From Clostridia bacterium (GTDB lineage Bacteria; Bacillota; Clostridia; Christensenellales; CAG-138), in NCBI GenBank assembly GCA_036804025.1, contig DAIRTE010000001.1:2542-66541 (forward strand): DNA of 64,000 nt, in the 5' to 3' direction. This document shows, one piece after another, positions 6,294-21,009 of the stretch (position 1 is the first letter of the stretch; each line of letters begins with the position of its first letter). The notes under the pieces are model-generated. The model searched no databases. It saw nothing but the letters and a program-made list of their open reading frames with translations, and had not been told where the DNA came from. Both the position numbers and the translations under genes were made by a program.

Positions 6294-8246
6294 ATGAAAC
6301 GGAAACCAAATCTTCCGCTGATCGCGTGGATCGGCTGCCTATGCGTGATGCTGGCGGCGATGTCGCTTGCCGCCGGAATTCAGAACGATTTCGGCAACAT
6401 CGAGATCACGACCGGCACTCTGGAGGTAAATGGCGGCAGTATTACCTACAAGCTTTACCGCCCCGTTTCGGCGACGGCGGATACGCCCGCGCCCGCGGTG
6501 CTGCTGATGCACGGCTATCAGAACGACCGGGACACCTCCGCCGCCTACGCGCTGGAGCTCGCGCGGCGCGGTGTCGTCGCGCTGACCATCGACTCCTACG
6601 GCCACGGTTCCACGGACATTGACATGCTTGCGCGCGGATACACGCACCACAAACTGCCGAACTGGGACAAGACCGTCAACGGACCGGAACGCTACCTCTT
6701 GATGATGAACTTCAACACGAGTGATTTTTACACGAACCTTGCGGACGTACCGGGCGACACGCTGGGGGACACTTCCATGGGCGGGCGGGAGATGTATGCC
6801 TACCTTGGTACGCTGCCGTTTGTGGACGCGGAGAATCTCGGCGTTACAGGCCACTCCATGGGCACCTGGTCGAGCTGGAGCGTCGCTTCGAGCTTTCCGA
6901 ACCACAAGGCGATTGTGCTGCAATGCGGCGAGCTCTTCCCGAAGTCGTATTACGACAGCGAAGCGATTGACTTTCACAATGTGCTGCTGCTGCAGGCGCG
7001 TTATGACGAGTTTGTCTGCTTTCTGGACTACACCAAAGCCGTTCCGGACGAACTGGTCAACACGGAACTGCGCTACGGAGAGTTTGCAAACCAGAGCGGG
7101 CCGATCGACTGGAACACCACCTACGGCTCGTTTGCGGACGGCACCGCGCGGCGCATGGAGCTGCTCACCAACGCGAACCACCGGCTGGTGACGATCAACA
7201 AGCATGCCATCGCAACCGCAATGGACTGGTTCTTCGATTCGTTTGGTGAAACCGCGCCAATCGATTCCGGCAACCAGACCGCGCTGCTGCTGGAGACCAT
7301 GCAGTTTGTCGGCCTGCTCGCCGCGCTGGCAAGCACGCTGCCGCTGTTGCTCCTGCTGCTCAAGACGAAGTTCTTCGCGCCCTGCGCGCAGAAGATGCCG
7401 AGTCGTCCGGAAACCCTGCTGCCAAGGAAAAAGTGGTGGGGCGCGGCGCTGACGGCGATTTTGATCAGCGGGCTCTCCTATCCGTTCTTGACGCAGTTGG
7501 GGCACGGGCTCATGCCCCTGCCGGAGAGCATTTTCCGCATGACGATTGGCGACGGGGTGATCACCTGGTTTGTCTTCCTCGCGCTTGTCGCGTTCTTCAT
7601 GCTGCGGCATTGGTTCCGGCGTGGCGCGGGCAAGCGCATGGGCGAAACGCTCTACGATCTCGGCCTCGCTTCGGAAGCGGAGCCCAACCGCCTTCCATGG
7701 GGTGTGATTGGCAAGTCCGCGCTGCTCGCCGTCCTTCTTATTGGTAGCGTCTATGCGTATGCGGAGCTGTTCCAGCGGCTGTTTGCGCTGGACTTCCGGT
7801 TCGTCTGGCCGCTGCTCAAGCCCTTCACCGGGGAGCGGCTGCTGCAGTTCTTCCTCTACTTGCCGTTCTACCTCGTGTTCTTCCTGATCAACGGCGGCGC
7901 AAAGCTCTACGGGCAGCTCCGCCAGCCGGAGTGCAAGCATCCGGCGGCAACGCAGCTGGTCTGGTGGCTCAAGGGCAGCCTCGTGATGATTGGCGGCTTG
8001 CTGCTCGTTTGCCTGATCGAGTACATTCCGTTCTTTGCGGGGATCGGGCCGGGCATGGACATCCTGTTTTCGTCCACCTTTGGCGGGCCGTTCATCTCGT
8101 TTTTGATCGTGATCATTCCGCAGTTCATTCTGTTCTTCTTCCTCTCGACCTATGCGTTCCGCAAGACGGGGCGCGTGTATGTTGGCTCGGTGATGCTGGC
8201 GCTGCTGGCCACCTGGGCGGTAACCGCGGGTTCGAGCATGCTGTAA
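6294..8246 (+). CDS. membrane-anchored alpha/beta-hydrolase fused to a polytopic membrane domain
   Basis: 650 aa. N-terminal TM/signal segment, then PAVLLMHGY and the nucleophile elbow GHSMG. The C-terminal ~300 aa form multiple hydrophobic helices. Confidence 0.7.
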   Translation: MKRKPNLPLIAWIGCLCVMLAAMSLAAGIQNDFGNIEITTGTLEVNGGSITYKLYRPVSATADTPAPAVLLMHGYQNDRDTSAAYALELARRGVVALTIDSYGHGSTDIDMLARGYTHHKLPNWDKTVNGPERYLLMMNFNTSDFYTNLADVPGDTLGDTSMGGREMYAYLGTLPFVDAENLGVTGHSMGTWSSWSVASSFPNHKAIVLQCGELFPKSYYDSEAIDFHNVLLLQARYDEFVCFLDYTKAVPDELVNTELRYGEFANQSGPIDWNTTYGSFADGTARRMELLTNANHRLVTINKHAIATAMDWFFDSFGETAPIDSGNQTALLLETMQFVGLLAALASTLPLLLLLLKTKFFAPCAQKMPSRPETLLPRKKWWGAALTAILISGLSYPFLTQLGHGLMPLPESIFRMTIGDGVITWFVFLALVAFFMLRHWFRRGAGKRMGETLYDLGLASEAEPNRLPWGVIGKSALLAVLLIGSVYAYAELFQRLFALDFRFVWPLLKPFTGERLLQFFLYLPFYLVFFLINGGAKLYGQLRQPECKHPAATQLVWWLKGSLVMIGGLLLVCLIEYIPFFAGIGPGMDILFSSTFGGPFISFLIVIIPQFILFFFLSTYAFRKTGRVYVGSVMLALLATWAVTAGSSML

Positions 8247-9608: not shown

Positions 9609-10058
9609 TCAGGCGTTGGTGATGTCGGAAAATACGAAGCCTTTTCGAATGATAATATCCCCCATGACGCGCGGGTCGGAGGTCTGTATGGTTGCATAGG
9701 CGTCTCTGGTGCGCTGGTAGAACTCCTTGCGGGATACTCGATTGAGGATCAGCGGGGTAGAAGAAGGGACGTTTTTGAGCACGTTCTGATAATCGTTCCA
9801 AATCTGCGGTTCTTCATAAATCCCATAATCGAGAGACATGATCGTAACCGGGAACTCTTCGTCATTGTCCAACGGGAAATATTTCAAAATCTCGGCCAAC
9901 AGCTTGTGATTTTCCTTCGTATAGGAATATACGACCTTTTTGCTCATGGCCGACGCCATATAGTTCGCATCCGCGATTACCAACTCGTCAAGATGCCCCA
10001 TACGGTAAATCACTTCATAGATTTCGGGTGTGATCAGATTCGATATCTTTATCAACAT
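9609..10058 (-). CDS. RbsD/FucU-family sugar mutarotase (pyranase)
   Basis: 149 aa. Aligns by eye with E. coli FucU along its length (LITPEIYEVIYRMGHLDELVIADANY vs [26 protein letters not shown]). Divergent from the PTS operon. Confidence 0.8.
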   Translation of the reverse strand: MLIKISNLITPEIYEVIYRMGHLDELVIADANYMASAMSKKVVYSYTKENHKLLAEILKYFPLDNDEEFPVTIMSLDYGIYEEPQIWNDYQNVLKNVPSSTPLILNRVSRKEFYQRTRDAYATIQTSDPRVMGDIIIRKGFVFSDITNA

Positions 10059-10303
10059 AATGGCATTTCCTCGAAAGACGGTTTATTTGTTCTAATAGAG
10101 AATTGTGCGAAATGATTACGGCTGTAATTATATGCCGATCCTGTTTTCTGTCAAGGCTAGCGGCAATTTGCCATCCAAAACCGGCGAGATATCTGCCAAA
10201 GTTGCATCATATTTGTGTGAAGAGAAAGGAACTATGGATCGGATGTATGGGATGTTATATTAAATATAAGTGCATGCGCGAAATAAAAACGGAGGTGGGT
10301 TTT

Positions 10304-11563
10304 GTGGAATTTTTACAGTCGGCTCTGAACTGGTATGCTGCTCTCCCCGCGGCGGTCATGATTATGATCGGCATCTTTCTCGTGGGACTCTTACTTGCTC
10401 GATTAAATCCCTTGCGGGCACTCAAAGCTTCAATTTATGTTGCGGCAGGCATCATCGGCCTGAACACGCTGGTTGGCATGTTCGCTAGCGCAATCATCCC
10501 GGTGCTGGTGAAGGTCATCAGCGCGACCGGTATGAAACTCGACGTGATTGACCTGGGGGTTGCATCCGCCCAGTCTTTTGTCATCTTCCCGCTCAAGTTT
10601 TATGCGATCCTGTTGATTGTCGGCCTTGGGGTCAACATTCTGATGATTGCATTAAAGCTGACCAAGACGTTTGACGTTGATATTTTCAACTACTATGTAT
10701 GGGCGCTGTCCTCCGCGTTTGTTTATGTTCTGACGAACAGCGTTGGTTGGGCAATCGCCGCGTTTGTTGTAACGGAGGTAGTCATCCTCAAGTTGGCGGA
10801 TCTCACACAGCCGGCAATTGCCAGAGAATACGGTTTGGAAGGCGTATCCGTTCCGCATGGCAACGCGGTCGTCTTCGCACCGGTTGGTATGCTGGTGAAC
10901 TGGATCATCGAAAAGATTCCGAAGGTAAGAGACATCAACTGGAGCCCGGAAGCGATTGAAAAGAAGTTCGGCGGCATTGTCGAACCGTCCACATTGGGCT
11001 TTGTCATGGGCATCGTCCTTGGCATCATCGCAAAGTCTTCGGCCGGTGAAGTGATTCAGCTGGGCCTGATCACGGCGGCGTTCATGATTATCTTCCCGAA
11101 GGTACTGAATATCCTGATCGAAGGCATTACGCCGGTTGCGGACGGCATGCGAGAATTTACGGAGAAAAAACTGCACAGACAGCTTCACATCGGTCTGGAT
11201 GCTGCGATTCTGGTTGGCATGCCGGACGTCATGGCGACCGGTATTCTCCTTGTGCCCGTTATCCTGCTTCTTGCGTTCATTCTCCCCGGAAACCGGGTAC
11301 TGCCGATGGCCGACCTAGCGATTGCGGCGCCCTTCCTGGTGAGCTGCGCGATGCCCTACTGTAAAAAGAACATCTTCAGAGGGTTTATCAGCGGCATCAT
11401 CATCTTTATCATTGCGCTCTATATGTGCACCGGTACTGCCGCGCTGTATACGCAAGCGGCGGCGTTGAATGGCGTTCCGTTTGAATCGACGTCTACCTCG
11501 CTGGGCATCTGCTCGACGCCGGTCAGCTGGATCATCGCCAAGATTACAGCACTGTTTTCGTAA
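10304..11563 (+). CDS. PTS galactitol-family EIIC permease
   Basis: Collinear by eye with E. coli GatC (VDIFNYYVW, VSVPHGNAVVFAPVGMLVNWIIEKIPKV, GIVEPSTLGFVMGIVLGIIA). Start set at GTG 10304, 8 nt after ggagg (10291-10295). The ORF is open from 10103. Confidence 0.9.
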   Translation: MEFLQSALNWYAALPAAVMIMIGIFLVGLLLARLNPLRALKASIYVAAGIIGLNTLVGMFASAIIPVLVKVISATGMKLDVIDLGVASAQSFVIFPLKFYAILLIVGLGVNILMIALKLTKTFDVDIFNYYVWALSSAFVYVLTNSVGWAIAAFVVTEVVILKLADLTQPAIAREYGLEGVSVPHGNAVVFAPVGMLVNWIIEKIPKVRDINWSPEAIEKKFGGIVEPSTLGFVMGIVLGIIAKSSAGEVIQLGLITAAFMIIFPKVLNILIEGITPVADGMREFTEKKLHRQLHIGLDAAILVGMPDVMATGILLVPVILLLAFILPGNRVLPMADLAIAAPFLVSCAMPYCKKNIFRGFISGIIIFIIALYMCTGTAALYTQAAALNGVPFESTSTSLGICSTPVSWIIAKITALFS

Positions 11564-11584
11564 GAACCAAACGATCCATGATCT

Positions 11585-11621
11585 CGCCAGTACAGCCGCA
11601 AGTTCTGTGGCTGTACTGGCG
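11585..11621 (+). promoter_or_regulatory. intercistronic RNA stem-loop between EIIC and EIIB
   Basis: Perfect 13-bp inverted repeat cgccagtacagcc / ggctgtactggcg with an 11-nt loop. No U-tract follows. Confidence 0.5.
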
Positions 11622-11638
11622 AATAGAAAGGTGAACAT

Positions 11639-11926
11639 ATGGACAAAAAGAGAATCATCGTTGCTTGCGGCACTGGCGGTGTAACGTCAAAAAACGTGGC
11701 GATGAAGATTGAGAAGTTTCTCAAAGAGAAGAACGTGGACTGCTTTATTGATACGTGCAAAGTGGTTGAAGTACGCGAAAAGGCGAAGCTTCTCAAGCCG
11801 GATCTGGTCGTATCCCCCACGCAATTGCCGGAAGTTGGAGTGCCGAAAGTGGTTGCAACCGCGCTGCTGACGGGCGTTGGGGCGGATAAAGTTTACAACG
11901 AAATATACGACATCCTCATGAAATGA
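11639..11926 (+). CDS. PTS EIIB component (galactitol/lactose-type PTS_IIB)
   Basis: 95 aa. MDKKRIIVACGTGGVTS carries the phospho-Cys at residue 10, as in GatB. Confidence 0.9.
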   Translation: MDKKRIIVACGTGGVTSKNVAMKIEKFLKEKNVDCFIDTCKVVEVREKAKLLKPDLVVSPTQLPEVGVPKVVATALLTGVGADKVYNEIYDILMK

Positions 11927-11945
11927 GGGAGGTAGGAGAAGAAGC

Positions 11946-12977
11946 GTGTTGATTGAGTGTGATAGCAGATTGTGGTTTGGGAAATACGGCGGATGCTTTA
12001 TTGCCGATGCGTTTACGCTGGGCTGTGACCGATATTATGATGAATACCGCAAAGCGGTTGCGGACCCTGAGTTCATTCGGGTGTATGAACAGCTCAAGAA
12101 ACAGTTTGTCGATGATTCCTTTCGGTTTGTTGCAACAGAGAAAGGAAATCTGACACTCTGTTTTGCACCGGAGAACGTATACTCCATATTGGGAACGGCG
12201 CTACTGGTAAAAAAGCTGAACAAGAAGAAAGCGGTGTCCGGTGTTCGTTATGCCGATGAGGCGATTTGCTGCGCGCGCGTTTGTGCCGAGCTGGGCGTAC
12301 CCCTCAAGCTGTATCTGGCGCACGATATTGCCGGGATCTCTTCTTTGCGCACAAGGCTTGCCTCGCTTGGCGCGGAGTATGACGCCGAAATCTGCGGCGA
12401 GCTGTTTAATCTGCCCGAAATGTATGCGTTCCAGGAGTGGGTTGCATCGCCGGACGAACTCGGAATCATCAACTGCAGAAGCAATGTTGGCGCATTTCCG
12501 CAGGTCAACATCGCTACCGATTTTTCAAAAGAATACGGGGAGAAGTTCCGTGAGTCTTTGGAAAAAGAATGCGCCGACGGATACAACCGAATCGTAGTGC
12601 CGAGCATCAGCGGTTCGCTCGCGTTGGCGGTATGGAAAGCGTTTGAAGATTCCGCTGTGCGCCTGATCAGCGTGGAGTGCGATCCAGTCGATGATTTAAC
12701 CGAGGAGCTGGACAGCTACTGTGGAACGTTTACGAAGGTCATGCGCAATCGTTTTGTCGACCGGGTACCGGCCCCGGAATGGATGGCCGTGGTGGAGGAA
12801 GGCAAGGCTGAGCGGGTGATCGTCGGCTTCGATCAGGCAACTAAGACGGCCGATCCTCGCGCCATAGCCGAAACCGTTTCCCTGCAAAGTCTGGCGGCGC
12901 TTTGCCACAGTGAATCCCTGAAGAACGAGAAGGTAATCTGCGTTGTCAGGGGCATGCGGTGGGGTGTGGAGCTATGA
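11946..12977 (+). CDS. tryptophan synthase beta (TrpB)-like protein, degenerate; PLP-lysine block and GGGSN loop not conserved
   Basis: 343 aa, GTG start 7 nt after aggag. The TrpB N-terminal signature WFGKYGGCFIADAF...DPEF and later collinear blocks are present. HTGAHK, ETGAGQHG and GGGSN are replaced. Confidence 0.7.
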   Translation: MLIECDSRLWFGKYGGCFIADAFTLGCDRYYDEYRKAVADPEFIRVYEQLKKQFVDDSFRFVATEKGNLTLCFAPENVYSILGTALLVKKLNKKKAVSGVRYADEAICCARVCAELGVPLKLYLAHDIAGISSLRTRLASLGAEYDAEICGELFNLPEMYAFQEWVASPDELGIINCRSNVGAFPQVNIATDFSKEYGEKFRESLEKECADGYNRIVVPSISGSLALAVWKAFEDSAVRLISVECDPVDDLTEELDSYCGTFTKVMRNRFVDRVPAPEWMAVVEEGKAERVIVGFDQATKTADPRAIAETVSLQSLAALCHSESLKNEKVICVVRGMRWGVEL

Positions 12978-13840
12978 CGGACAGAATTACAGATACCATT
13001 CGAAGAGCCCAGGCGAACGGGCGCGTGGCTTTCATCGGACTGGTGCCGATTGAACCGGACAGCATGGCGCATTCGCTTCGAATTGCCGACGCGATGGTTC
13101 AATCGGGCGTCGACATTCTGATGGCGCACATCCCAAACTGGATTCCCTGGATGGAGGGCAAGGCGCTTCAGCGAGCGGCGCAGGAACCAAGAAACGCCGG
13201 TATTTCGCGAGAGCAGATTTTCGATTTTATTAAGGCGCTGCGTAACCAACATCCGCAAGTGCCGATTATCAACATGACGCTCTACGACACGGCGCTTACC
13301 ATGGGCCAGGATACGTTTTTCCGGCTCTCGGAGGAAGCGGATGTAGATGGTTTCGATATCCCGAACTATCCGCTGGTCAGTACCGAAGATAAATTCGGCT
13401 TTTATGAACAGTGCCTCAAGCAAGGCAGACACCTGATTCTCGCCATTTCTTATGAGATTGCTACGGCAAAGGAGGGTACACAGGAGTATCAAATGCTCCT
13501 TGAGATGGCTAAGAGAGCGAGAGGCTTTGCGTTTATCATGAACGCGCCGGGCGGAAAGTCCGGGTCGGATGTGAAGCTGTCGAATGAGGAACTGCGTTCC
13601 GCCGTGCAGCGCGTAAAATCGGTGATGAAGGCACAGGGGAATGACTGCTATACCTCTATTGTGTGCGGGATTTCCGGAAAAGAAGACTTAATAAAAGTGA
13701 AGCATTCCGGGGCGGAGAGCTTCATGATCGGCAGCGCATATATTCAAATGCTGCAGGACGGAAAATCACTGGAAGAGGTTTCAAGCTATCTGCAAGGAAT
13801 CCGAAACATGTGCAATCTTGACTGCGAGGTGTCCGGATGA
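12974..13840 (+). CDS. tryptophan synthase alpha (TrpA)-like TIM-barrel protein, paralogue 1 (catalytic Glu/Asp positions substituted)
   Basis: Full-length collinearity with TrpA (AFIGLVP.., DILMAHIPNWIPWMEGK, VPIINMTLY, VDGFDIPNYP, VCGIS, IGSAYI). ATGA overlap with the TrpB-like gene. Confidence 0.75.
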   Translation: MTDRITDTIRRAQANGRVAFIGLVPIEPDSMAHSLRIADAMVQSGVDILMAHIPNWIPWMEGKALQRAAQEPRNAGISREQIFDFIKALRNQHPQVPIINMTLYDTALTMGQDTFFRLSEEADVDGFDIPNYPLVSTEDKFGFYEQCLKQGRHLILAISYEIATAKEGTQEYQMLLEMAKRARGFAFIMNAPGGKSGSDVKLSNEELRSAVQRVKSVMKAQGNDCYTSIVCGISGKEDLIKVKHSGAESFMIGSAYIQMLQDGKSLEEVSSYLQGIRNMCNLDCEVSG

Positions 13841-14682
13841 ACGCGGTTGAGCAAAAATTTCTGGACTATGAGGCGAAGAACAAAGGCGCCATCATCGTAG
13901 AAATCCCGCTTCTAGCGCCCATTCCGCAGACGCAGCTGGACGTAGCGGAGGTTCTGGTAAAAGCCGGAGTCGACGTGATTCAGGTGCCGATTCCGGTGCG
14001 ATTTCCCTGGATGTACGGCGCGCGGATACAGACCATCCAGAAGATGGCGGCGCAGAACGATGTTTGCTATCGCCAGTCATTCCAGGTGCTTTCCATGTTG
14101 ATCGAGAAGTACAAGCAAACCGAGTTCATGCCGGTTGGATTCTACGGCGGACTGCAGCGCATGGGTCAGGAAAACTACGTGGAGCAATGCGCCCGATTGG
14201 GAATCAAGATGGTGGACGTGCCGGATTACCCGATTGTTCATGACGATGACCCGCAAGGACTGTTGAAAGCGCTTCAGGGCAAAGGCATATCGTTTGTTAC
14301 GGTCATCAGTACAGAGATGGCACTGGAACCGGAAGGAAGCCGCGGGTATCAACAGCTGGAGCGGTTGATCGCAGTATCGAGCGGATTCTGCTTTTTGCTG
14401 GCCGCGGCCGGTGGAAAAACCGGAGAAAAGAAAGCCTTTGATTATGGCACGCTGGCCAAAGCGAAGGCAAGGATACTAGAAGTTCAGAGTAAGGTGAATA
14501 GACGCTGCCCCATCGTCGCTGTTTGCGGCATATCGGAACCGGAGCAGGTTCGAATACTGGTGAAGGACATTGGCCTGCACGTCATGTTTGGCAGCGCGCT
14601 CTTCACCCGCATGATGCGGGGCGACAGCAGCGAAGAAATCTATCGATTCCTATTGGAAATGAAACAGGCTGCAAGCGAATAA
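13837..14682 (+). CDS. tryptophan synthase alpha (TrpA)-like TIM-barrel protein, paralogue 2 (catalytic Glu/Asp positions substituted)
   Basis: 281 aa. DVIQVPIPVRFPWMYGA, MVDVPDYP, AVCGIS and FGSALF are collinear with TrpA and with paralogue 1. ATGA overlap with paralogue 1. Confidence 0.75.
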   Translation: MNAVEQKFLDYEAKNKGAIIVEIPLLAPIPQTQLDVAEVLVKAGVDVIQVPIPVRFPWMYGARIQTIQKMAAQNDVCYRQSFQVLSMLIEKYKQTEFMPVGFYGGLQRMGQENYVEQCARLGIKMVDVPDYPIVHDDDPQGLLKALQGKGISFVTVISTEMALEPEGSRGYQQLERLIAVSSGFCFLLAAAGGKTGEKKAFDYGTLAKAKARILEVQSKVNRRCPIVAVCGISEPEQVRILVKDIGLHVMFGSALFTRMMRGDSSEEIYRFLLEMKQAASE

Positions 14683-14703
14683 TGCAAGTAAAAGGGAAAC
14701 AAC

Positions 14704-15180
14704 ATGGCTGGAGAGATTAAGATACTGGAATCGTGCATCGATTTAAACCTTGCCGCAGACACCAAGGAAGGCGTTATTACGAGCCTTGCCGGTAGGCTTG
14801 CGGAACAGGGCTTTGTTGATTCGAAATATGTTGATAAGGTTGTGCAGCGGGAGCAGGAGTATCCGACGGGGTTGATTTTCCCTGGAATTCAGATTGCTTT
14901 GCCGCACGGCAGCTCGGAACATGTGAAGACGTCTGCAATAGCGGTAGGACGATGTGTGAAGAAACCGGAATTTGCAAACATGGAAGACTTTTCACAAAAA
15001 ATCAAAGTGGATATGGTTGTTGTACTTGCGATAAAGGACCCGGACAGACACCTGATCATTCTAAATAATCTGATTGAGCTGTTCACCTCGAATGAAAACT
15101 GTAAGGTTCTTTTGGGATGCGACTCGAGCGCAGAAGTCTGCCGACTGTTTCGAAATTGCCTTTATCAGATGAACGAATAG
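14704..15180 (+). CDS. PTS EIIA component (PTS_EIIA_2, GatA/mannitol-fructose type)
   Basis: 158 aa. REQEYPTG and IALPHG (phospho-His) match GatA REAEFPTG and IAIPHC. Confidence 0.9.
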   Translation: MAGEIKILESCIDLNLAADTKEGVITSLAGRLAEQGFVDSKYVDKVVQREQEYPTGLIFPGIQIALPHGSSEHVKTSAIAVGRCVKKPEFANMEDFSQKIKVDMVVVLAIKDPDRHLIILNNLIELFTSNENCKVLLGCDSSAEVCRLFRNCLYQMNE

Positions 15181-15193
15181 AAGGAGAGAACAA

Positions 15194-15976
15194 ATGGCTG
15201 TGAATAGAATGGAACGAATACTCGGGGAAATGAAGCAGGCGGGCGAAAAGATATTGGTCGCCTATTATCCGCTATGCGATCCCCTGTTGGACGACCCGGT
15301 TGCATGGGCGGGCAAGTACTTTGAAAATGGTGCAACCGTTCTGGAGATGGGACTGCCATATGAGAATCCTTGCTTGGACGGAAAAATCGTTCGGGAATCG
15401 ATGGAACGCGCGCTGACGAAGCATACGGTTGACGATGCGTTCGACGTGATTGCGGAGCTTCGCCAAGCATATCCCAACAATATTCTGCAGGTGATGACCT
15501 ATTTCGAGATTATTGATAAAATGGGGATAGAGAATTTCGCAAAACGCTGCGCGGAGTGCGGCGCGGACGGCGTACTGACCCCCAACATCCCCCAATCTCG
15601 CGTAGCGGAGCTGGATCGGGCGCTTGGAGCTTATCATCTGCTGCAACTGCGCTTTGCCCCCTTCCATTTGAGCGGGGATGCCATAAACGACCTGAAGGCG
15701 AATGCCAAGGGGTATATCTTCCTGCAGGCGGTTGACGGCGCAACCGGGCCGCAGGAGAAGACCTCGCCGCAGGTTGGCGAAAATGTAAAAACGCTGAAGC
15801 AAAGCGGCATAGGCACCCCGGTCGTCGCCGGATTTGGCATTTCCAATGCGCAGCACGTACGAGAAATGAAGGCGATGGGCGCGGACGGCGTGATTGTTGG
15901 AAGCAAAATTATTTCGGAAATTCAGAACGGAAATGGCGAGGAGTTCATTCGACAGCTAAGGAGCGCATTGCAGTAA
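15194..15976 (+). CDS. tryptophan synthase alpha (TrpA)-like TIM-barrel protein, paralogue 3 (catalytic Glu/Asp retained)
   Basis: 260 aa. VLEMGLPYENPCLDGK matches TrpA ALELGxPFSDPLADGP. Also GADGVLTPNIP, GFGISNAQHV and VIVGSKII. RBS gaaggag. Confidence 0.8.
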   Translation: MAVNRMERILGEMKQAGEKILVAYYPLCDPLLDDPVAWAGKYFENGATVLEMGLPYENPCLDGKIVRESMERALTKHTVDDAFDVIAELRQAYPNNILQVMTYFEIIDKMGIENFAKRCAECGADGVLTPNIPQSRVAELDRALGAYHLLQLRFAPFHLSGDAINDLKANAKGYIFLQAVDGATGPQEKTSPQVGENVKTLKQSGIGTPVVAGFGISNAQHVREMKAMGADGVIVGSKIISEIQNGNGEEFIRQLRSALQ

Positions 15977-15990
15977 ACAAAAGGAGTAAT

Positions 15991-18162
15991 ATGGTCACCA
16001 TTACTCAACGTTGCCTGAACATGCTAAGACTCATCTGCAACAAACAAGGTCCAATCACGGCAAAACAAATTGCGAGCAATCTTGGAATCAGCGAAAGAAC
16101 TGCGCGATACGATCTTTCGCTCCTCCATGATTGGCTTGCGGAAAAAAACGTAACGTTGATGAGCGTTCCGAAAAAAGGCAGCTATTTCGAGGAAGACGAG
16201 AAAGCACGCGCACGGTTGCTACTCACGCAGTACAGCACGACGTATCAACCCTACGGGCTGTACCTGAATGTGGACGAGCGAGTCAACCGAATTATTCTTC
16301 AAATTCTGCACGGGCAGGAAGATAAAGCCATTGACGATCTTTCGGAGGAGCTCGGCATCAGTCGGGCAACGTTCGTTCGAGACATGGAGAAAGCGGAGAA
16401 CTGGTTTGAGCTGCATCAGGTGACCCTGCAGCGTGGGCAGAAGAAAGGCGTCCATCTGGACGTCGACGAGATTACCCGTCGCAGCCTAATGGTGGTGTTT
16501 CTCATCGAAAACACGAGCATCCATTCCTTTCTGGATTCTTACTGGGTGCGCGACTCTGGCGAGAATAAACCGGCTCAGCCATACTGCGCGTTTTCCGCCG
16601 TGCAACAGCTTCAGCAGTCGGTGAATTTTGACCGATTGTATCAGATCTTGGATGAATATCTGTCCAACATTCAGATCGTAGTATCGGACAATACGGTCAC
16701 TTGGCTTATCTATTATGTAGCGGTGATGGCGGCGCGAATAAAGGAAGGAAAGCACATCGAAACCCTTCCGAATCAATACGATCAGTTCGTTAATACGGAT
16801 GCATATGCAAAGATCAGAGAGGTATTGAAAGAGCAATTCTTTGGAAATATCGATGAAGCGCAATTGAGCAACGAAGCGTGCTTCATCGTCGGTCGGTTGT
16901 TTGCCGCCGCGACGAACATGAAGGACACCATCAACGAAGAGAACAGCGAGATCGCAAATCGCGTTTACCTATTCATTCTAAACAAAATCCGCCAGCACAT
17001 TGGTTATGATATGCGGGGCAGCGCGGAGCTGGCGGACGGTTTGAAGACGCATTTGCAGGCTTCTCTGGTGCGGGCGCAGCTGAACATTACGACGAGCAAC
17101 GCCATGCTCGACGAGATCAAGCGCAAATTCTCGGATCTGTTTGAAACATGCAGCTTTATTGCGGACGAAGTCAACGAGACATTTGACCTGCATTTTGATG
17201 AGAACGAAGTTGGATTCATTGTGTTATACATCGTGGCGGCTATGGAGCAAATGCACAAAACGGTCTTGAAACCAACAATGGTGCGCGCCGTGCTGGTCTG
17301 TGGATATGGGTTGGGTACCGTGTCGCTGCTGATGAATTCGCTGGAGAAGCACTTTCCGAGCATTGAGATCGTGGATAAACTGTCGATTTTTACGTTGAAC
17401 CGGTATGATTTTTCGGATGTGGACGTGGTGCTCTCAACAGTTGATATTCCGCTGACACTGCTTAAGCCAACCATCAAAGTGAGCCCGATTCTCACGAAGC
17501 TCGACGAGCGAAAGATCGATTCCTTTTTAAGAAATGGTCGAATGACGGCGAAAAACAATCTGCAGGATGTTCAAATGACGGAGTTGCTGAATATCATTGG
17601 CAACAACTGCGAGATTCGAAACAACAAGAAACTGCTGGAAGATCTGGATCGCATGCTGCGCACGTTTGCCGACGTACCCCAAACGCTCACAAGCCTGCCT
17701 GCGCTGCCGGATGTTTTGCTGAAGAAATATATCGTCGCCCAGATCGAAGCGGATACCTGGGAAGAGGCGGTTCTGAAGGCGGCCCAACCCTTGCTGGAGA
17801 ACGGCTGCATCACCATGGAGTATATCGACCAGATCTTCGGAATGAAGAATCGATTCGGGCAGTATTCCATCATTGCGCCCGGCGTGTGCATGCCGCATGC
17901 GACGCCAGGCGAGAGCGGAAAGCTGGCCATGTCGCTGGCTACACTGAAAAGGCCGGTTCGAGTTGTCGTGGAAGGCGAAGCGGTCGACATCCATGTATTT
18001 ATGGTGCTCTCGCTCGTGGATTCCATTTCGCACGCCAAAGCACTGGACGAGGTATTTCTGTTGCTGGACGAGTTCCCGAGCCTGGTGGATGAGCTAAAGT
18101 CGGCAACCAAATCGACGGATATTTCCAACGTGTTTAAAACGTACTACAACAAGCTTTTTTGA
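15991..18162 (+). CDS. PRD-domain transcriptional activator of the MtlR/LicR/ManR type (HTH-HTH-PRD-PRD-EIIB(Gat)-like-EIIA(Mtl)-like)
   Basis: 723 aa. N-terminal HTH (ITAKQIASNLGISERTARYDL) and a second wHTH, then a central helical PRD region. An EIIB-like block (VLVCGYGLGT) and a C-terminal EIIA-like block (CMPHATPGE) follow. No AAA+/sigma-54 module. Confidence 0.85.
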   Translation: MVTITQRCLNMLRLICNKQGPITAKQIASNLGISERTARYDLSLLHDWLAEKNVTLMSVPKKGSYFEEDEKARARLLLTQYSTTYQPYGLYLNVDERVNRIILQILHGQEDKAIDDLSEELGISRATFVRDMEKAENWFELHQVTLQRGQKKGVHLDVDEITRRSLMVVFLIENTSIHSFLDSYWVRDSGENKPAQPYCAFSAVQQLQQSVNFDRLYQILDEYLSNIQIVVSDNTVTWLIYYVAVMAARIKEGKHIETLPNQYDQFVNTDAYAKIREVLKEQFFGNIDEAQLSNEACFIVGRLFAAATNMKDTINEENSEIANRVYLFILNKIRQHIGYDMRGSAELADGLKTHLQASLVRAQLNITTSNAMLDEIKRKFSDLFETCSFIADEVNETFDLHFDENEVGFIVLYIVAAMEQMHKTVLKPTMVRAVLVCGYGLGTVSLLMNSLEKHFPSIEIVDKLSIFTLNRYDFSDVDVVLSTVDIPLTLLKPTIKVSPILTKLDERKIDSFLRNGRMTAKNNLQDVQMTELLNIIGNNCEIRNNKKLLEDLDRMLRTFADVPQTLTSLPALPDVLLKKYIVAQIEADTWEEAVLKAAQPLLENGCITMEYIDQIFGMKNRFGQYSIIAPGVCMPHATPGESGKLAMSLATLKRPVRVVVEGEAVDIHVFMVLSLVDSISHAKALDEVFLLLDEFPSLVDELKSATKSTDISNVFKTYYNKLF

Positions 18163-18186
18163 AAAAACTTTATAAGGAGAACAACG

Positions 18187-18453
18187 GTGGTTCAGAAAGA
18201 ATTTACAATCTGCAATGAGGTTGGTCTGCACGCGCGGCCGGCGTCCGAGCTTTGCGCGTTATGCAAGCAGTTTGAAAGCGAAATCAAAGGGAACACGCAA
18301 AAGAAAGCGTTTAATCCGAAGAGCGTGATCAGCATTCTGACCGCCGAGATCAAAAAAGGCACGAGCATTACCATTGAGGTCAATGGCGCGGACGAAGAGC
18401 AGGCGATGATTCGACTCACGAAGTTTTTCGACGGGCTGGCCGGAGAGTGTTGA
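18187..18453 (+). CDS. ptsH: phosphocarrier protein HPr
   Basis: 88 aa, GTG start after aaggag. GLHARPA carries His15, and Ser46 is present (NPKSVIS). Confidence 0.92.
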   Translation: MVQKEFTICNEVGLHARPASELCALCKQFESEIKGNTQKKAFNPKSVISILTAEIKKGTSITIEVNGADEEQAMIRLTKFFDGLAGEC

Positions 18454-19196
18454 CGAGCGCACAAGGAGACGAAGGATTGACAGACGAAACAGATGCGGCT
18501 TTGACAAACCGCTATGCCATCTTTGATATGGATGGCACGCTGATAGACTCCAACCCTTGGCTGTCCAAGGTGAGCGGCCGATACCTGGCCAGACGGGGGC
18601 TGCCACCAAACGAAAAATACGAAAATCTAGCCGCCGGCATGGTCTTTGAAGATTTTTGCCTGGCCATACGGGACTATGCGGGCGATCATAACCCACTGGA
18701 AGCCACCATTGATGAAATCAACGGATATACGTCGGAAGTGTATACGAAGTGCGACATTCCGGCGAAACCATATGTGCGGGAGTATTTGGAACTGCTTCGG
18801 AAGAACGGCGTTCGCATGTGCGTTGGCTCGGCAACCGAGAGAGACCGCATTGAGTCCGTACTCCGGCGGCTGTCGCTAAGAGACTTTTTTGAGTTTGTCG
18901 TTACGACTGTCGACGTGGGATGCGGCAAGAATAAGCCGGATCTTTTTATCGAAGCGGCCAAACGATTTGGCGTGAATGACTACAGCGGCGTTACGGTGTA
19001 TGACGATCATCTGCCCGCCATGAAGGCCGCAAAGTCGGCGTGTTTTCGTGTGGTTGGTGTTTATGACAAAGTTGGGGAACAGCAGGTCGAAGTGGCAAAG
19101 GAAGTATGCGATATTTTTTCGTATGATTTTGAAGCGCTTACTAAAAGGATTGTCAGCCGAGAGCAAGGCGCAGATTCGAAACGACAAGAGGGATGA
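18447..19196 (+). CDS. HAD-IA family phosphatase (beta-phosphoglucomutase-like hydrolase)
   Basis: DxDGT motif (AIFDMDGTLIDS), GSAT, and GKNKPD...YDDH. The ORF opens at GTG 18447, overlapping the ptsH stop. TTG 18477, 8 nt after aaggag, is an alternative start. Confidence 0.85.
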   Translation: MLTSAQGDEGLTDETDAALTNRYAIFDMDGTLIDSNPWLSKVSGRYLARRGLPPNEKYENLAAGMVFEDFCLAIRDYAGDHNPLEATIDEINGYTSEVYTKCDIPAKPYVREYLELLRKNGVRMCVGSATERDRIESVLRRLSLRDFFEFVVTTVDVGCGKNKPDLFIEAAKRFGVNDYSGVTVYDDHLPAMKAAKSACFRVVGVYDKVGEQQVEVAKEVCDIFSYDFEALTKRIVSREQGADSKRQEG

Positions 19197-19210
19197 TAAG
19201 GAGAAGACAT

Positions 19211-20953
19211 ATGCGAACAGGGGTGGCGGCTTCGCCCGGCATAGCAATTGGGAGAGCCTATCGATATCTGAAAAATGCGATTGCCATCAATGAGAACACG
19301 CTTCGAGAGGATGAGATCGAAGCGCAAGTGCAGGTTCTGGACGAAGCGCTGGTCAAAACGAAATCGCAGCTGACCGACTTATGTGCATACGCTTCGGAAA
19401 AACTGGGGAACGACAAAGCGAAAATATTCGAAAGCCACCTGGACATGATCGAGGACGAGGAGCTGATGAATGATATTCGTCAGAACATCGTTGATAAGCG
19501 TATGTTTCCGGATGCGGCGGTTCAAGCTGCGGTAAAGAAATATACGGAACTCTTCGGCCAGATCGAGGATGCATACATCCGTGAGCGAATTGCAGATATT
19601 CAGGATGTCTGTTCCCGGTTGATGAATAACATCTGCGGCGTTCCAACGATGTCCCTCAACCAGGTGACGGAGGAATCGATTGTAATCGCGAAAGACCTCG
19701 CACCGTCGGATACGGTGCAACTCAACAAAGCCGTCGTCAAAGGATTCTGCACGGACGTAGGCGGATTTACATCGCACACGGCCATCATGGCAAGGACGCT
19801 TGGAATTCCGGCTGTCGTTGGCTTGCAGAACATTACAGACGACGTTTCAGATGGTGATATTATCATTGTTGACGGCGGCAAGGGGCAGGTACTGATCAAT
19901 CCGAATCAGGCGCTGCTTCGGCAATATGAAACGCGAAAGGCGACGGAAGAAGCGGAACAACAGGCGCTCAGAAAACTGATTCATTTCCCAGCTCAGACCA
20001 GCGATGGCGCACGAACGGTTGAGCTTGCAGCGAATATCGGATCGATTGAGGACTGCGAAGCAGCATTGGAGAACGGCGCAGAAGGTGTCGGTTTGCTCCG
20101 TACGGAGTTCTTTTACATGGGCAGAAGCACTCTGCCAAGCGAGGAAGAACAGTTCCGAATCTACAAGAGCATACTCCAGAAGATGGCGCCTCATGCGGTA
20201 AGCATTCGAACGCTGGATATCGGCGGCGATAAGAAAACCGCATGTATCGAGATTCCGGAGGAGGAAAATCCGTTTCTTGGTTGGCGCGCGATCCGAATCT
20301 GTCTGGAACGTACGGATATTTTTAAAACGCAGTTGCGCGCGATTTTGCGGGCCAGCCACTTTGGAAAAGCGCGAATCCTGTTTCCAATGATCTCTGATTT
20401 ATCCGAAATCAGAAGGGCGAAAGCAATCCTGAATAGCGTAATGCAAGAGCTGGACTCGCAGAAGATCGCATACAACAAAGAGATCGAAATTGGAATTATG
20501 ATCGAGGTGCCTGCGGCAGCAATCGCCGCGGATCTCCTGATTCAGGAGGTAGATTTCTTTAGCATTGGAACCAACGATCTGGTTCAGTACACGCTAGCAG
20601 TCGATCGGATGAACGGGAAGATTTCCAATCTTTATAAGCCTTTGAACATTGCCGTTTTGCGGTTGGTGAAAAACGTCGTTGCCGTTTCGCATGACGCGGG
20701 GAAATGGACCGGGATGTGCGGCGAACTGGCCGGATGCACCGAAGCGACCCCGATTCTGTTGGGACTCGGACTGGACGAACTATCGATGAGCAGCGCCTCC
20801 CTGTTGAAGGTGAAGAGCGCGATTCGCTCCTGCACTCTTGCGCAGGCACAAGCGATTACAAAAGAGGCGTTGAGCCTAAACGAAACGGAGAAGATTGAAG
20901 CTCTGCTGGCGCAAGTAAGCGAGCAACTTTCGCTTACGAAAGAACGGGATTAG
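19211..20953 (+). CDS. ptsI: phosphoenolpyruvate-protein phosphotransferase (PTS Enzyme I)
   Basis: N-terminus MRTGVAASPGIAIGRAY, active-site GGFTSHTAIMARTLGIP, and C-terminal PEP-utilising domain (GTNDLVQYTLAVDR). ATG 19211 follows aaggagaag; the ORF is open from 19193. Confidence 0.95.
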   Translation: MRTGVAASPGIAIGRAYRYLKNAIAINENTLREDEIEAQVQVLDEALVKTKSQLTDLCAYASEKLGNDKAKIFESHLDMIEDEELMNDIRQNIVDKRMFPDAAVQAAVKKYTELFGQIEDAYIRERIADIQDVCSRLMNNICGVPTMSLNQVTEESIVIAKDLAPSDTVQLNKAVVKGFCTDVGGFTSHTAIMARTLGIPAVVGLQNITDDVSDGDIIIVDGGKGQVLINPNQALLRQYETRKATEEAEQQALRKLIHFPAQTSDGARTVELAANIGSIEDCEAALENGAEGVGLLRTEFFYMGRSTLPSEEEQFRIYKSILQKMAPHAVSIRTLDIGGDKKTACIEIPEEENPFLGWRAIRICLERTDIFKTQLRAILRASHFGKARILFPMISDLSEIRRAKAILNSVMQELDSQKIAYNKEIEIGIMIEVPAAAIAADLLIQEVDFFSIGTNDLVQYTLAVDRMNGKISNLYKPLNIAVLRLVKNVVAVSHDAGKWTGMCGELAGCTEATPILLGLGLDELSMSSASLLKVKSAIRSCTLAQAQAITKEALSLNETEKIEALLAQVSEQLSLTKERD

Positions 20954-20984
20954 CCGTATCAACTGGGAATGAACTCGCTATTTT

Positions 20985-21009
20985 GCCGATGCAAGTGCGT
21001 CGGCTTTTT
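20985..21009 (+). terminator. rho-independent terminator ending the PTS operon
   Basis: 8-bp stem gccgatgc/gcgtcggc (one G-U pair) with an AAGT loop, followed by ttttt (21005-21009). Confidence 0.6.

Follow-up and report, generated by a model that had tools for sequence, protein, structure and literature searches.

Tryptophan synthase serves as the classic example of both substrate channelling and allostery between subunits, and its beta subunit, TrpB, is held to be an obligate pyridoxal 5′-phosphate (PLP) enzyme. Here we describe TrpBL, a TrpB-like protein encoded in a 64,000-nucleotide stretch of contig DAIRTE010000001.1 from a Clostridia bacterium (hereafter, the window). TrpBL has the full-length TrpB fold without the PLP lysine, and its gene lies in a phosphotransferase system (PTS) cassette that also encodes three TrpA-like proteins, TrpAL1, TrpAL2 and TrpAL3 (coordinates in Table 1). 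The tryptophan synthase architecture seems to have been reused here for a PTS-linked catabolic pathway hitherto undescribed. We favour, at about even confidence, the reading that TrpBL is a PLP-independent, non-catalytic beta-type partner, which would dock on and activate the TrpA-like lyases and would perform no beta-replacement. Throughout, TrpB residues are numbered as in the E. coli/Salmonella protein; the reference sequence is identical to 2dh5_A and was linked to the hhalign template by alignment.

TrpBL is a real, though very divergent, TrpB homologue. The NCBIfam trpB model TIGR00263 matched it with an E value of 9e-14 at 51.3 bits, not reaching the family cut-off of 392.45, and the Pfam PALP model PF00291 scored 19.2 bits, under its cut-off of 35. 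When the single TrpBL sequence was searched against the PDB, the best match was LBCA TrpB (E 4e-12) and all significant matches were TrpB chains; a TrpBL family profile matched Francisella TrpB best (E 9e-22). Alignment by hhalign of the TrpBL family (31 sequences) with an alignment of 13 genuine TrpBs gave a probability of 99.75% and an E value of 3e-27, with 322 columns aligned. The AlphaFold2 model of TrpBL, built from the 31 family members, had a pLDDT of 92.7 and a pTM of 0.92, and in a Foldseek comparison of this model with the PDB the top 50 matches were all TrpB (TMq 0.80-0.84, E ~1e-20, identity 18-20%). A preliminary description of this DNA, made by eye, had put TrpBL at about 50 amino acids (aa) shorter than TrpB; the measured difference from E. 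coli TrpB (397 aa) is 54 aa. Both HMMER and hhalign reproduced every one of the motif pairings proposed there, namely WFGKYGGCFIADAF with FGxFGGxYVPE, ILGTALLVKKLNKKKAVSGVRYADE with LGQALLAKRMGKxxIIAETGAGQHG, VVPSISGSLALAV with VACVGGGSNAIG, and VRLISVE with VxLIGVE.

The likeness to TrpB extends over the fold of the whole chain (TM 0.83) and includes the N-terminal FGxxGG strand, the LGxALLAK helix, a GxHP-like loop and the VE motif. It also includes an uninterrupted COMM domain, in which TrpBL residues 92-178 align with TrpB 102-189 with single-residue gaps only; W177 is retained there, and the other residues of helix 6 are changed. By contrast, the K87 segment is missing from TrpBL: 8-12 residues of the REDLxHxGAHK segment are deleted, and HMMER and hhalign place K87 opposite N77 or a gap. 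E109 and T110-H115 give way to GVRYADE, whose R101, D104 and E105 are at least 94% conserved in the family, GGGSN is reduced to SGS, and the tunnel-lining residues C170 and F280 correspond to E158 and C259. Further deletions remove 8 aa past VE256 (the 258-270 loop), 13 residues directly after the hairpin at TrpBL 253-273 (the TrpB 294-306 loop with D305/F306, the gap placement by hhalign being somewhat ambiguous) and about 25 residues at the C-terminus. Taken together, the deletions account for the 54-residue difference in length.

A conserved or relocated catalytic lysine was sought in the alignment of the 31 family sequences and in a wider clade of about 50 short, heterogeneous TrpB-likes, and none was found. 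The best-conserved lysine of TrpBL, K264, occurs in 28 of the 31 family sequences (R, R and L in the others), and no lysine reaches 50% in the wider clade. Since the K87 segment is deleted and the family has no conserved lysine, an internal aldimine is very unlikely. One could still suppose that TrpBL is PLP-dependent and that its catalytic lysine has migrated, pointing to K264 and to the partial survival of the phosphate loop. However, K264 is lost in three members and in the wider clade and falls on the hairpin at the equivalent of TrpB P285, off the cofactor site; none of the residues H86, T110-H115 and E350 is retained; and the scores lie far under the PF00291 and TIGR00263 cut-offs. We consider PLP dependence of this kind highly improbable, and the idea of a relocated catalytic lysine was rejected, as no lysine is conserved. 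The preliminary description was therefore right that the HxGAHK lysine is gone from a shortened segment and that the ETGAGQHG loop is replaced. Its further claim that TrpBL is PLP-independent agrees with these alignments, by which a covalent PLP enzyme is very unlikely, both the lysine and the E109/T110-H115 loop having gone.

The same description went too far in presenting the PLP-phosphate loop as apparently lost, as this loop is altered only. GGGSN (232-236) reads I/V-S222-G223-S224-x in the TrpBL family, and the equivalents of G232, G233 and N236 are replaced. G223, the equivalent of G234, is invariant in the family and in every wider-clade sequence; position 224, the equivalent of S235, is Ser or Thr in 100% of sequences, wider clade included; and S222 is retained in 94%. 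Thus, the alignments place no conserved lysine in the cofactor site, while the Gly-Ser/Thr part of its phosphate loop survives. Nearby, R178 and N180 are invariant in the family, and N180 is present in 86% of the wider clade.

TrpBL is encoded in a PTS sugar operon, not in a trp operon, and as in tryptophan synthase its gene adjoins TrpA-type genes with translational coupling. The cassette comprises 11 genes in the order EIIC-EIIB-TrpBL-TrpAL1-TrpAL2-EIIA-TrpAL3-PRD regulator-HPr-HAD phosphatase-Enzyme I, with ATGA overlaps (stop/start, 4 nt) at the TrpBL/TrpAL1 and TrpAL1/TrpAL2 junctions. For TrpAL1 the mechanical ORF (open reading frame) begins at 12959; in orthologous loci, gene callers choose a start that gives a 4-nt overlap with the TrpBL stop. 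The first eight genes, from EIIC to the PRD regulator, are colinear in every recovered locus, from 10 GTDB species and from metagenomes, which bears out the earlier remark that the gene is associated with three TrpA-like genes. This arrangement bears on whether TrpBL might be a ligand-sensing regulatory subunit, which would hold a phospho-metabolite in the relic PLP-phosphate site, form no tunnel-type complex, and modulate the TrpA-like enzymes or else the PRD regulator or PTS components. The G-S/T helix cap retained clade-wide, the intact COMM domain, which is the allosteric module of TrpB, and the PRD regulator encoded in the operon would all suit such a sensor. On the other hand, the TrpBL gene is always flanked by EIIB and the TrpALs, with stop and start codons that overlap, which argues for stoichiometric co-assembly with the TrpALs rather than control of the regulator, and no precedent for such a sensor was found. 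We give a sensor of this kind little credence.

Conservation within the TrpBL family is highest at the positions that in TrpB face TrpA and gate the tunnel. Mean column conservation in the family is 0.585, and it peaks in four blocks (residues 13-21, 156-163, 179-186 and 255-265), three of which are TrpA-contact or tunnel segments. In TrpB, the TrpA-contact and channel residues include I20, S161/G162, D168, N171, R175, S178/G179, Q288/G292 and Y279, as well as the channel residues K167, C170, F280 and 306-308 (PMC8187860). We collected these residues with immediate neighbours that we picked ourselves, and placed them on TrpBL by sequence alignment to TrpB rather than by superposition; the equivalent positions have a mean conservation of 0.89, a value reached by 0 of 20,000 random position sets. 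C150, P157, M159, Y160, F162, Q163 and W165, all in the segment that corresponds to the main TrpA-docking helix, are invariant in the family. Several of the residues concerned are changed from TrpB yet fixed in TrpBL: C150 (G162), N/D155 (K167), E158 (C170), M159 (N171), Q163 (R175), Y258-C259-G260 (Y279-F280-G281) and R267 (Q288). Judged by these alignments, TrpBL appears to retain, together with the fold and the uninterrupted COMM domain, three segments for TrpA docking and the tunnel mouth. In the wider clade, neither the contact set nor the pocket set is conserved above average (0.44-0.45 vs 0.43); G15, G16 and G223 are its only invariant residues, with C150, D/N155, P157, N180, S/T224, E244, E253, R267 and R290 also frequent.

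TrpBL also has four invariant cysteines, C17 (11994-11996), C27 (12024-12026), C150 (12393-12395) and C259 (12720-12722), with C113 and C245 conserved to 90% or more. Of the four, three lie in segments predicted to dock alpha or to form the tunnel mouth. In the wider clade, 83% of sequences have C150 and about 31% have C259; C17 is not retained there. These cysteines are a possible metal or Fe-S site.

TrpBL is under purifying selection, with a dN/dS of 0.10 and 0.12 against two close relatives (0.07-0.09 for TrpAL1-3). The loss of the catalytic motifs and of about 54 aa could suggest that TrpBL is a functionless trpB relic in decay. Against this stand the low dN/dS, 36 columns that are invariant across 31 sequences with identity down to 37%, intact ORFs in all loci and a confidently modelled fold; we see next to no chance of such a relic. 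A pseudogene was rejected on dN/dS and conservation.

Which lyases might TrpBL serve? Assigned against the LBCA TrpA alignment, TrpAL3 retains E49, D60, Y102, T183, G184, F212-G213 and G234-S235, and by sequence it is a bona fide TrpA-type lyase. TrpAL1 carries E49→M and D60→E, and TrpAL2 carries E49→Q and D60→Y; both also have an insertion of about 14 residues past strand 5, and in both a Cys (VCGIS) stands where TrpA has alphaF212. From their sequences, TrpAL1 and TrpAL2 may be non-catalytic or newly functional. In most wider-clade loci both TrpA-likes have E49 and one has D60, with the motif PW[LM][DE]G. In one locus (L022) one TrpA-like copy is degenerate, and the TrpBL there is paired with a TrpAL3-type protein (57% identity). 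TrpA-type enzymes without a beta partner are poorly active (PMC8187860, PMC11917138).

From these patterns we infer that TrpBL forms a complex with the TrpALs and activates them, and we infer likewise the reaction and the class of substrate. The galactitol-family PTS would import and phosphorylate a putative polyol-type substrate. Galactitol-type PTSs put a phosphate on the end of a polyol chain, and indole-3-glycerol phosphate carries such a tail. By this presumed link, the PTS product would bear a phosphorylated polyol tail like that of indole-3-glycerol phosphate, and a TrpA-type lyase (TrpAL3, or the E49-bearing TrpALs in the wider clade) would cleave it in a retro-aldol-type reaction to a triose phosphate and an unphosphorylated fragment. 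TrpBL would be the docking and activating partner that TrpA-type enzymes need, and its remodelled polar pocket, with the Gly-Ser/Thr anion hole, might bind a phospho-ligand or the released fragment.

The closest functional analogy for TrpBL as a proposed partner of a TrpA lyase is the plant TSB-like pseudoenzyme (Florean et al. 2025). It makes no tryptophan but activates TSA, whose indole is set free instead of being condensed with serine (PMC12727527). Two key substitutions turned TSB into this protein, E→A at the Glu that activates indole and D→E at the D305 equivalent; its active site is modelled with PLP, and it works on authentic indole-3-glycerol phosphate with the housekeeping TSA (PMC12727527). 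Both proteins are TrpB paralogues; the plant one partners a TrpA-type lyase and makes no tryptophan, and the same is proposed for TrpBL. What is new compared with the plant case is that the lysine itself and whole loops are gone (E109 is G99 in TrpBL, and the D305 loop is deleted or ambiguous), that TrpBL belongs to an ancient prokaryotic clade rather than being a recent duplicate, and that it is tied to PTS catabolism and has divergent TrpA-likes of its own.

Two PTS-linked systems offer further comparison. GatZ and KbaZ are non-catalytic subunits of tagatose-bisphosphate aldolase encoded in galactitol/GalNAc PTS operons; like the proposed TrpBL, they are inactive homologue-type partners that a lyase needs for full activity and stability, in a galactitol-family PTS operon. 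They differ in fold and family, their partner is a class II aldolase, and they have no homology to TrpA or TrpB. The Ula (L-ascorbate) system likewise has a galactitol/ascorbate (GAT)-family PTS followed by ribulose-phosphate-binding-barrel enzymes (UlaD; TrpA belongs to the same superfamily), and in the wider-clade locus L017 genes of the AP_endonuc_2 and Aldolase_II families lie in the neighbourhood, recalling ulaE and ulaF. In contrast to Ula, the cassette has no UlaG or UlaD homologues, its barrels are TrpA-like, Ula has no counterpart of the TrpB-like protein, and the EIIC scores nearer GatC than UlaA. A Ula-like (ascorbate) pathway was rejected, the UlaE/UlaF-like neighbours of L017 not being general across loci and the EIIC being nearer GatC.

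A search of 5.8 billion proteins returned 47 TrpBL clusters of 324-352 aa (with one 240-aa fragment) at 37-95% identity, named in the databases 'hypothetical protein' or, in JGI, 'tryptophan synthase beta subunit'. The gene was present in 10 of 185,579 GTDB species (one genome per species), all Bacillota metagenome-assembled genomes (MAGs), from Christensenellaceae, Oscillospiraceae, Pseudoflavonifractor, Lachnospiraceae, Mediterraneibacter and Erysipelotrichaceae. Exhaustive HMMER screening of 1.84 billion representatives gave 7 family members above 400 bits and a second tier of about 45 representatives at 70-200 bits, mostly of 300-352 aa; genuine TrpBs scored at most 80 bits. The lysine segment was absent from all second-tier TrpB-likes inspected. 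We define the short Lys-less TrpB-like clade linked to a GAT-family PTS by a length of 320-352 aa and a deleted K87 segment. All wider-clade loci with enough context encode a Lys-less TrpB-like followed by two TrpA-likes, together with a GAT-family PTS and a PRD regulator. The Lys-less TrpB-like adjoins at least two TrpA-likes and a GAT-family PTS in the window and in the loci L001-L016, L017, L021, L022, L023/24 and L025-L030. When the 5.8-billion-protein set was searched with a profile of the wider-clade alignment, the matches were essentially those of the same family, and none named a cultured organism; tblastn against the PLSDB plasmids gave no match. No model in Pfam or NCBIfam captures the family above threshold, and no description of it was found in the full-text literature, whose coverage was incomplete, so that this is absence of evidence only.

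Bathyarchaeota contigs carry the order EIIC-EIIB-betaL-alphaL-betaL-alphaL (TrpB-likes and TrpA-likes, respectively), with 4-nt overlaps and a GAT-family PTS. The first betaL, of 345 aa and with no Pfam match recorded, is a second Lys-less TrpB-like (hhalign 99.85%). A galactitol-family PTS with a duplicated alpha/beta-like pair is unusual in Bathyarchaeota. Contigs of this type (L028:3516-12719, also L029 and L030) carry the archaeal-type ribosomal genes L18e, L13 and S9, and their PTS genes encode EIIA, EIIC, EIIB, HPr, EI-like and PPDK_N proteins adjoining the betaL-alphaL-betaL-alphaL genes.

Several observations weigh against the view of TrpBL as a non-catalytic partner. The canonical alpha-beta contact residues differ in identity (K167→N/D, R175→Q, N171→M), and we infer docking from conservation, not from retained contact chemistry. 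The former PLP and substrate positions have a mean conservation of 0.83 vs 0.585 overall, a level that an active or ligand-binding site would explain no worse than a passive scaffold. The polar set in this pocket comprises N77, R101, D104, E105, R178, N180, S222-G223-S224, Q314 and S315, and many invariant residues of the pocket are charged or polar (R101, D104, E105, R178, N180, D272, R267 and R273). The lack of E49 in TrpAL1 and TrpAL2 of this subfamily leaves them with a role that the partner model does not explain. Finally, the only enzymes of the minimal wider-clade cassettes are TrpBL, two TrpALs and a phosphatase, so that TrpBL and both TrpALs may all have to be catalytic. The preliminary description had called TrpBL a candidate pseudoenzyme. 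In favour of that term, no catalytic residue set common to the wider clade is visible in its alignment; against it, the old PLP site is conserved far above average, unlike a decayed site, and 'pseudoenzyme' is therefore not established.

The same pocket could instead belong to an enzyme with new, PLP-independent chemistry, the old site having been turned into a polar one for catalysis on either the phosphorylated PTS product or the fragment that the TrpA-like lyase releases, with isomerisation, dehydration or a Cys- or metal-dependent step as candidate reactions. The new, conserved residue set in the former PLP and substrate positions speaks for this, as do the four invariant cysteines, a dN/dS of about 0.1 and the short list of possible enzymes in the minimal cassettes; the Gly-Ser/Thr anion cap and N180 persist clade-wide, as would suit a phospho-substrate in a PTS pathway. 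However, E244, E253 and R290 are the only near-invariant polar residues in the wider clade, in which no common catalytic mechanism is visible, and whole active-site loops are deleted (the K87 loop and the 294-306 loop). Of the four TrpA/TrpB-like proteins, TrpBL is also consistently the one that varies most from locus to locus (40-72% identity vs 50-76% for the TrpA-likes), and PLP-independent catalysis on the TrpB fold was not found in the literature. We regard a new enzyme as a serious possibility, if a doubtful one.

A more elaborate proposal, which we consider unlikely as a whole, is that an alpha/beta channelling machine has been re-purposed for PTS catabolism, with one or two Lys-less beta-likes and two or three alpha-like barrels. 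Such a machine would be old enough to be common to Bacillota and Bathyarchaeota. A C-substituted polyol, perhaps indole-3-glycerol or a similar IGP-like compound, or else a polyhydroxyalkyl heteroaromatic, would receive a phosphate on its terminal hydroxyl from the galactitol-type PTS, and a TrpA-type subunit would split off triose phosphate. The fragment would then reach the beta-like protein through a polar tunnel, in which E158, C259 and R273 would replace C170, F280 and the 306-307 wall, and would be processed in the old PLP pocket, at an active site that either needs no cofactor or depends on Cys or metal.

If TrpBL is indeed a beta-type partner of TrpA-like lyases, the alpha/beta architecture of tryptophan synthase would exist outside tryptophan synthesis, and nature would provide a system in which the contribution of beta to alpha catalysis is separate from beta chemistry. 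The cassettes would then encode new TrpA-type C-C lyases with their partners, of possible use in biocatalysis, and probably a new catabolic pathway of anaerobes from gut and sediment (Christensenellaceae, Oscillospiraceae, Lachnospiraceae, Erysipelotrichaceae and Bathyarchaeota). The label 'tryptophan synthase beta subunit' on TrpBL genes is wrong and could mislead the metabolic reconstruction of tryptophan and indole in gut MAGs.

Table 1 Features of the cassette and of TrpBL in the window (residue ranges are those of TrpBL unless marked TrpB)
Feature	Position	Strand	Basis or remark
PTS EIIC, galactitol/ascorbate (GAT) family	10274..11563	+	PF03611 E 3e-57; TIGR00827 308 bits, under cut-off of 542
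PTS EIIB	11639..11926	+	PF02302 E 1e-9
TrpBL, TrpB-fold protein without PLP lysine	11946..12977	+	GTG start, 343 aa
Residues 9-23, LWFGKYGGCFIADAF, equivalent to TrpB 7-21 including alpha-contact I20	11970..12014	+	Most conserved block of the family; C17 invariant
Residues 72-83, CFAPENVYSILG, remnant of the REDLxHxGAHKxNxxLG segment	12159..12194	+	Alignments
Residues 99-105, GVRYADE, replacing E109-TGAGQH115 (indole-activating Glu and serine-carboxylate loop)	12240..12260	+	Alignment
Residues 150-165, CGELFNLPEMYAFQEW, equivalent to the TrpB S5-H6 loop and COMM-domain helix 6 (G162-W177), main TrpA-docking helix	12393..12440	+	Alignment; PMC8187860
Residues 176-186, NCRSNVGAFPQ, equivalent to TrpB 187-197 (PLP-site floor)	12471..12503	+	Alignment
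Residues 219-226, PSISGSLA, remnant of the PLP-phosphate loop CVGGGSNA	12600..12623	+	Alignment
Residues 253-273, EELDSYCGTFTKVMRNRFVDR, beta-hairpin equivalent to TrpB 275-293 (gate Y279/F280; alpha contacts Q288/G292)	12702..12764	+	Alignment
TrpAL1	12974..13840	+	PF00290 89 bits
TrpAL2	13837..14682	+	PF00290 78 bits
PTS EIIA (type 2)	14704..15180	+	PF00359 E 8e-30
TrpAL3	15194..15976	+	TIGR00262 178.8 bits, above cut-off of 102
PRD-containing transcriptional regulator	15991..18162	+	HTH, Mga, PRD, EIIB-like and EIIA domains
HPr	18187..18453	+	Orthologues carry PF00381
HAD-IA sugar-phosphate phosphatase-like protein	18447..19196	+	PF00702/PF13419; weakly similar to HxpB and beta-PGM
PTS Enzyme I	19193..20953	+	Orthologues carry PEP-utilizers domains
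Terminator-like hairpin followed by T-run, end of the 11-gene cassette	20985..21004	+	Sequence

Other features of the cassette concern its boundaries and its mobility. The mechanical ORF of EIIC begins at 10103; judged by orthologues (419-438 aa), the likely start is at about 10274. The GC content of the cassette (window 10100-21004) is about 0.50, compared with 0.55-0.60 in the flanks, and in L027 (88% identity) the same 11 genes are intact between unrelated flanks and beside an rve_3 transposase fragment. Since the 11 genes recur in unrelated flanks and their GC content is below that of the surroundings, the cassette behaves as a self-contained island. It also encodes an HPr and an Enzyme I, and this PTS island appears to be self-sufficient and to move horizontally. 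The cassette edge repeatedly carries a gene for a sugar-phosphate phosphatase (L001:16111-16914, window 18447-19196, L023:8048-8782), drawn from different HAD subfamilies (Cof-type Hydrolase_3 in Erysipelotrichaceae and HAD-IA elsewhere); this recurrence is a hint that some phosphorylated intermediate or product has to lose its phosphate. For HPr, dN/dS between the window (18187-18453) and its closest relative (L025:16243-16509) is 0.70, from few sites, and 0.12 against L027; the high value may be noise or local recombination.

One Christensenellaceae MAG has a genuine 409-aa TrpB gene (L007:6833-8062, plus strand) directly upstream of the cassette EIIC on the same strand. Its product carries both HTGAHK and GGGSN and shares 49% identity with E. 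coli TrpB, and its helix 6 reads LKEAVDAAFEAY, with R175 and W177 not retained, which suggests a stand-alone or indole-salvage type of TrpB. That the cassette feeds tryptophan salvage, through TrpAL3 and a TrpB such as this one, was set aside, as this TrpB gene occurs in only 1 of the examined loci. On the upstream side of the window cassette, a sigma-70 promoter matching the consensus at 12 of 12 positions (TTGACA, 16 nt, TATAAT) lies on the minus strand at 10154-10127, upstream of a divergent gene for an RbsD/FucU-family mutarotase (10058..9609). Farther upstream and outside the cassette, an ORF of 650 aa (window 6294-8246, plus strand) is conserved in L025 and L026, where no Pfam match is recorded for it; its C-terminal half is hydrophobic, and its N-terminal half is, by eye, of hydrolase type.

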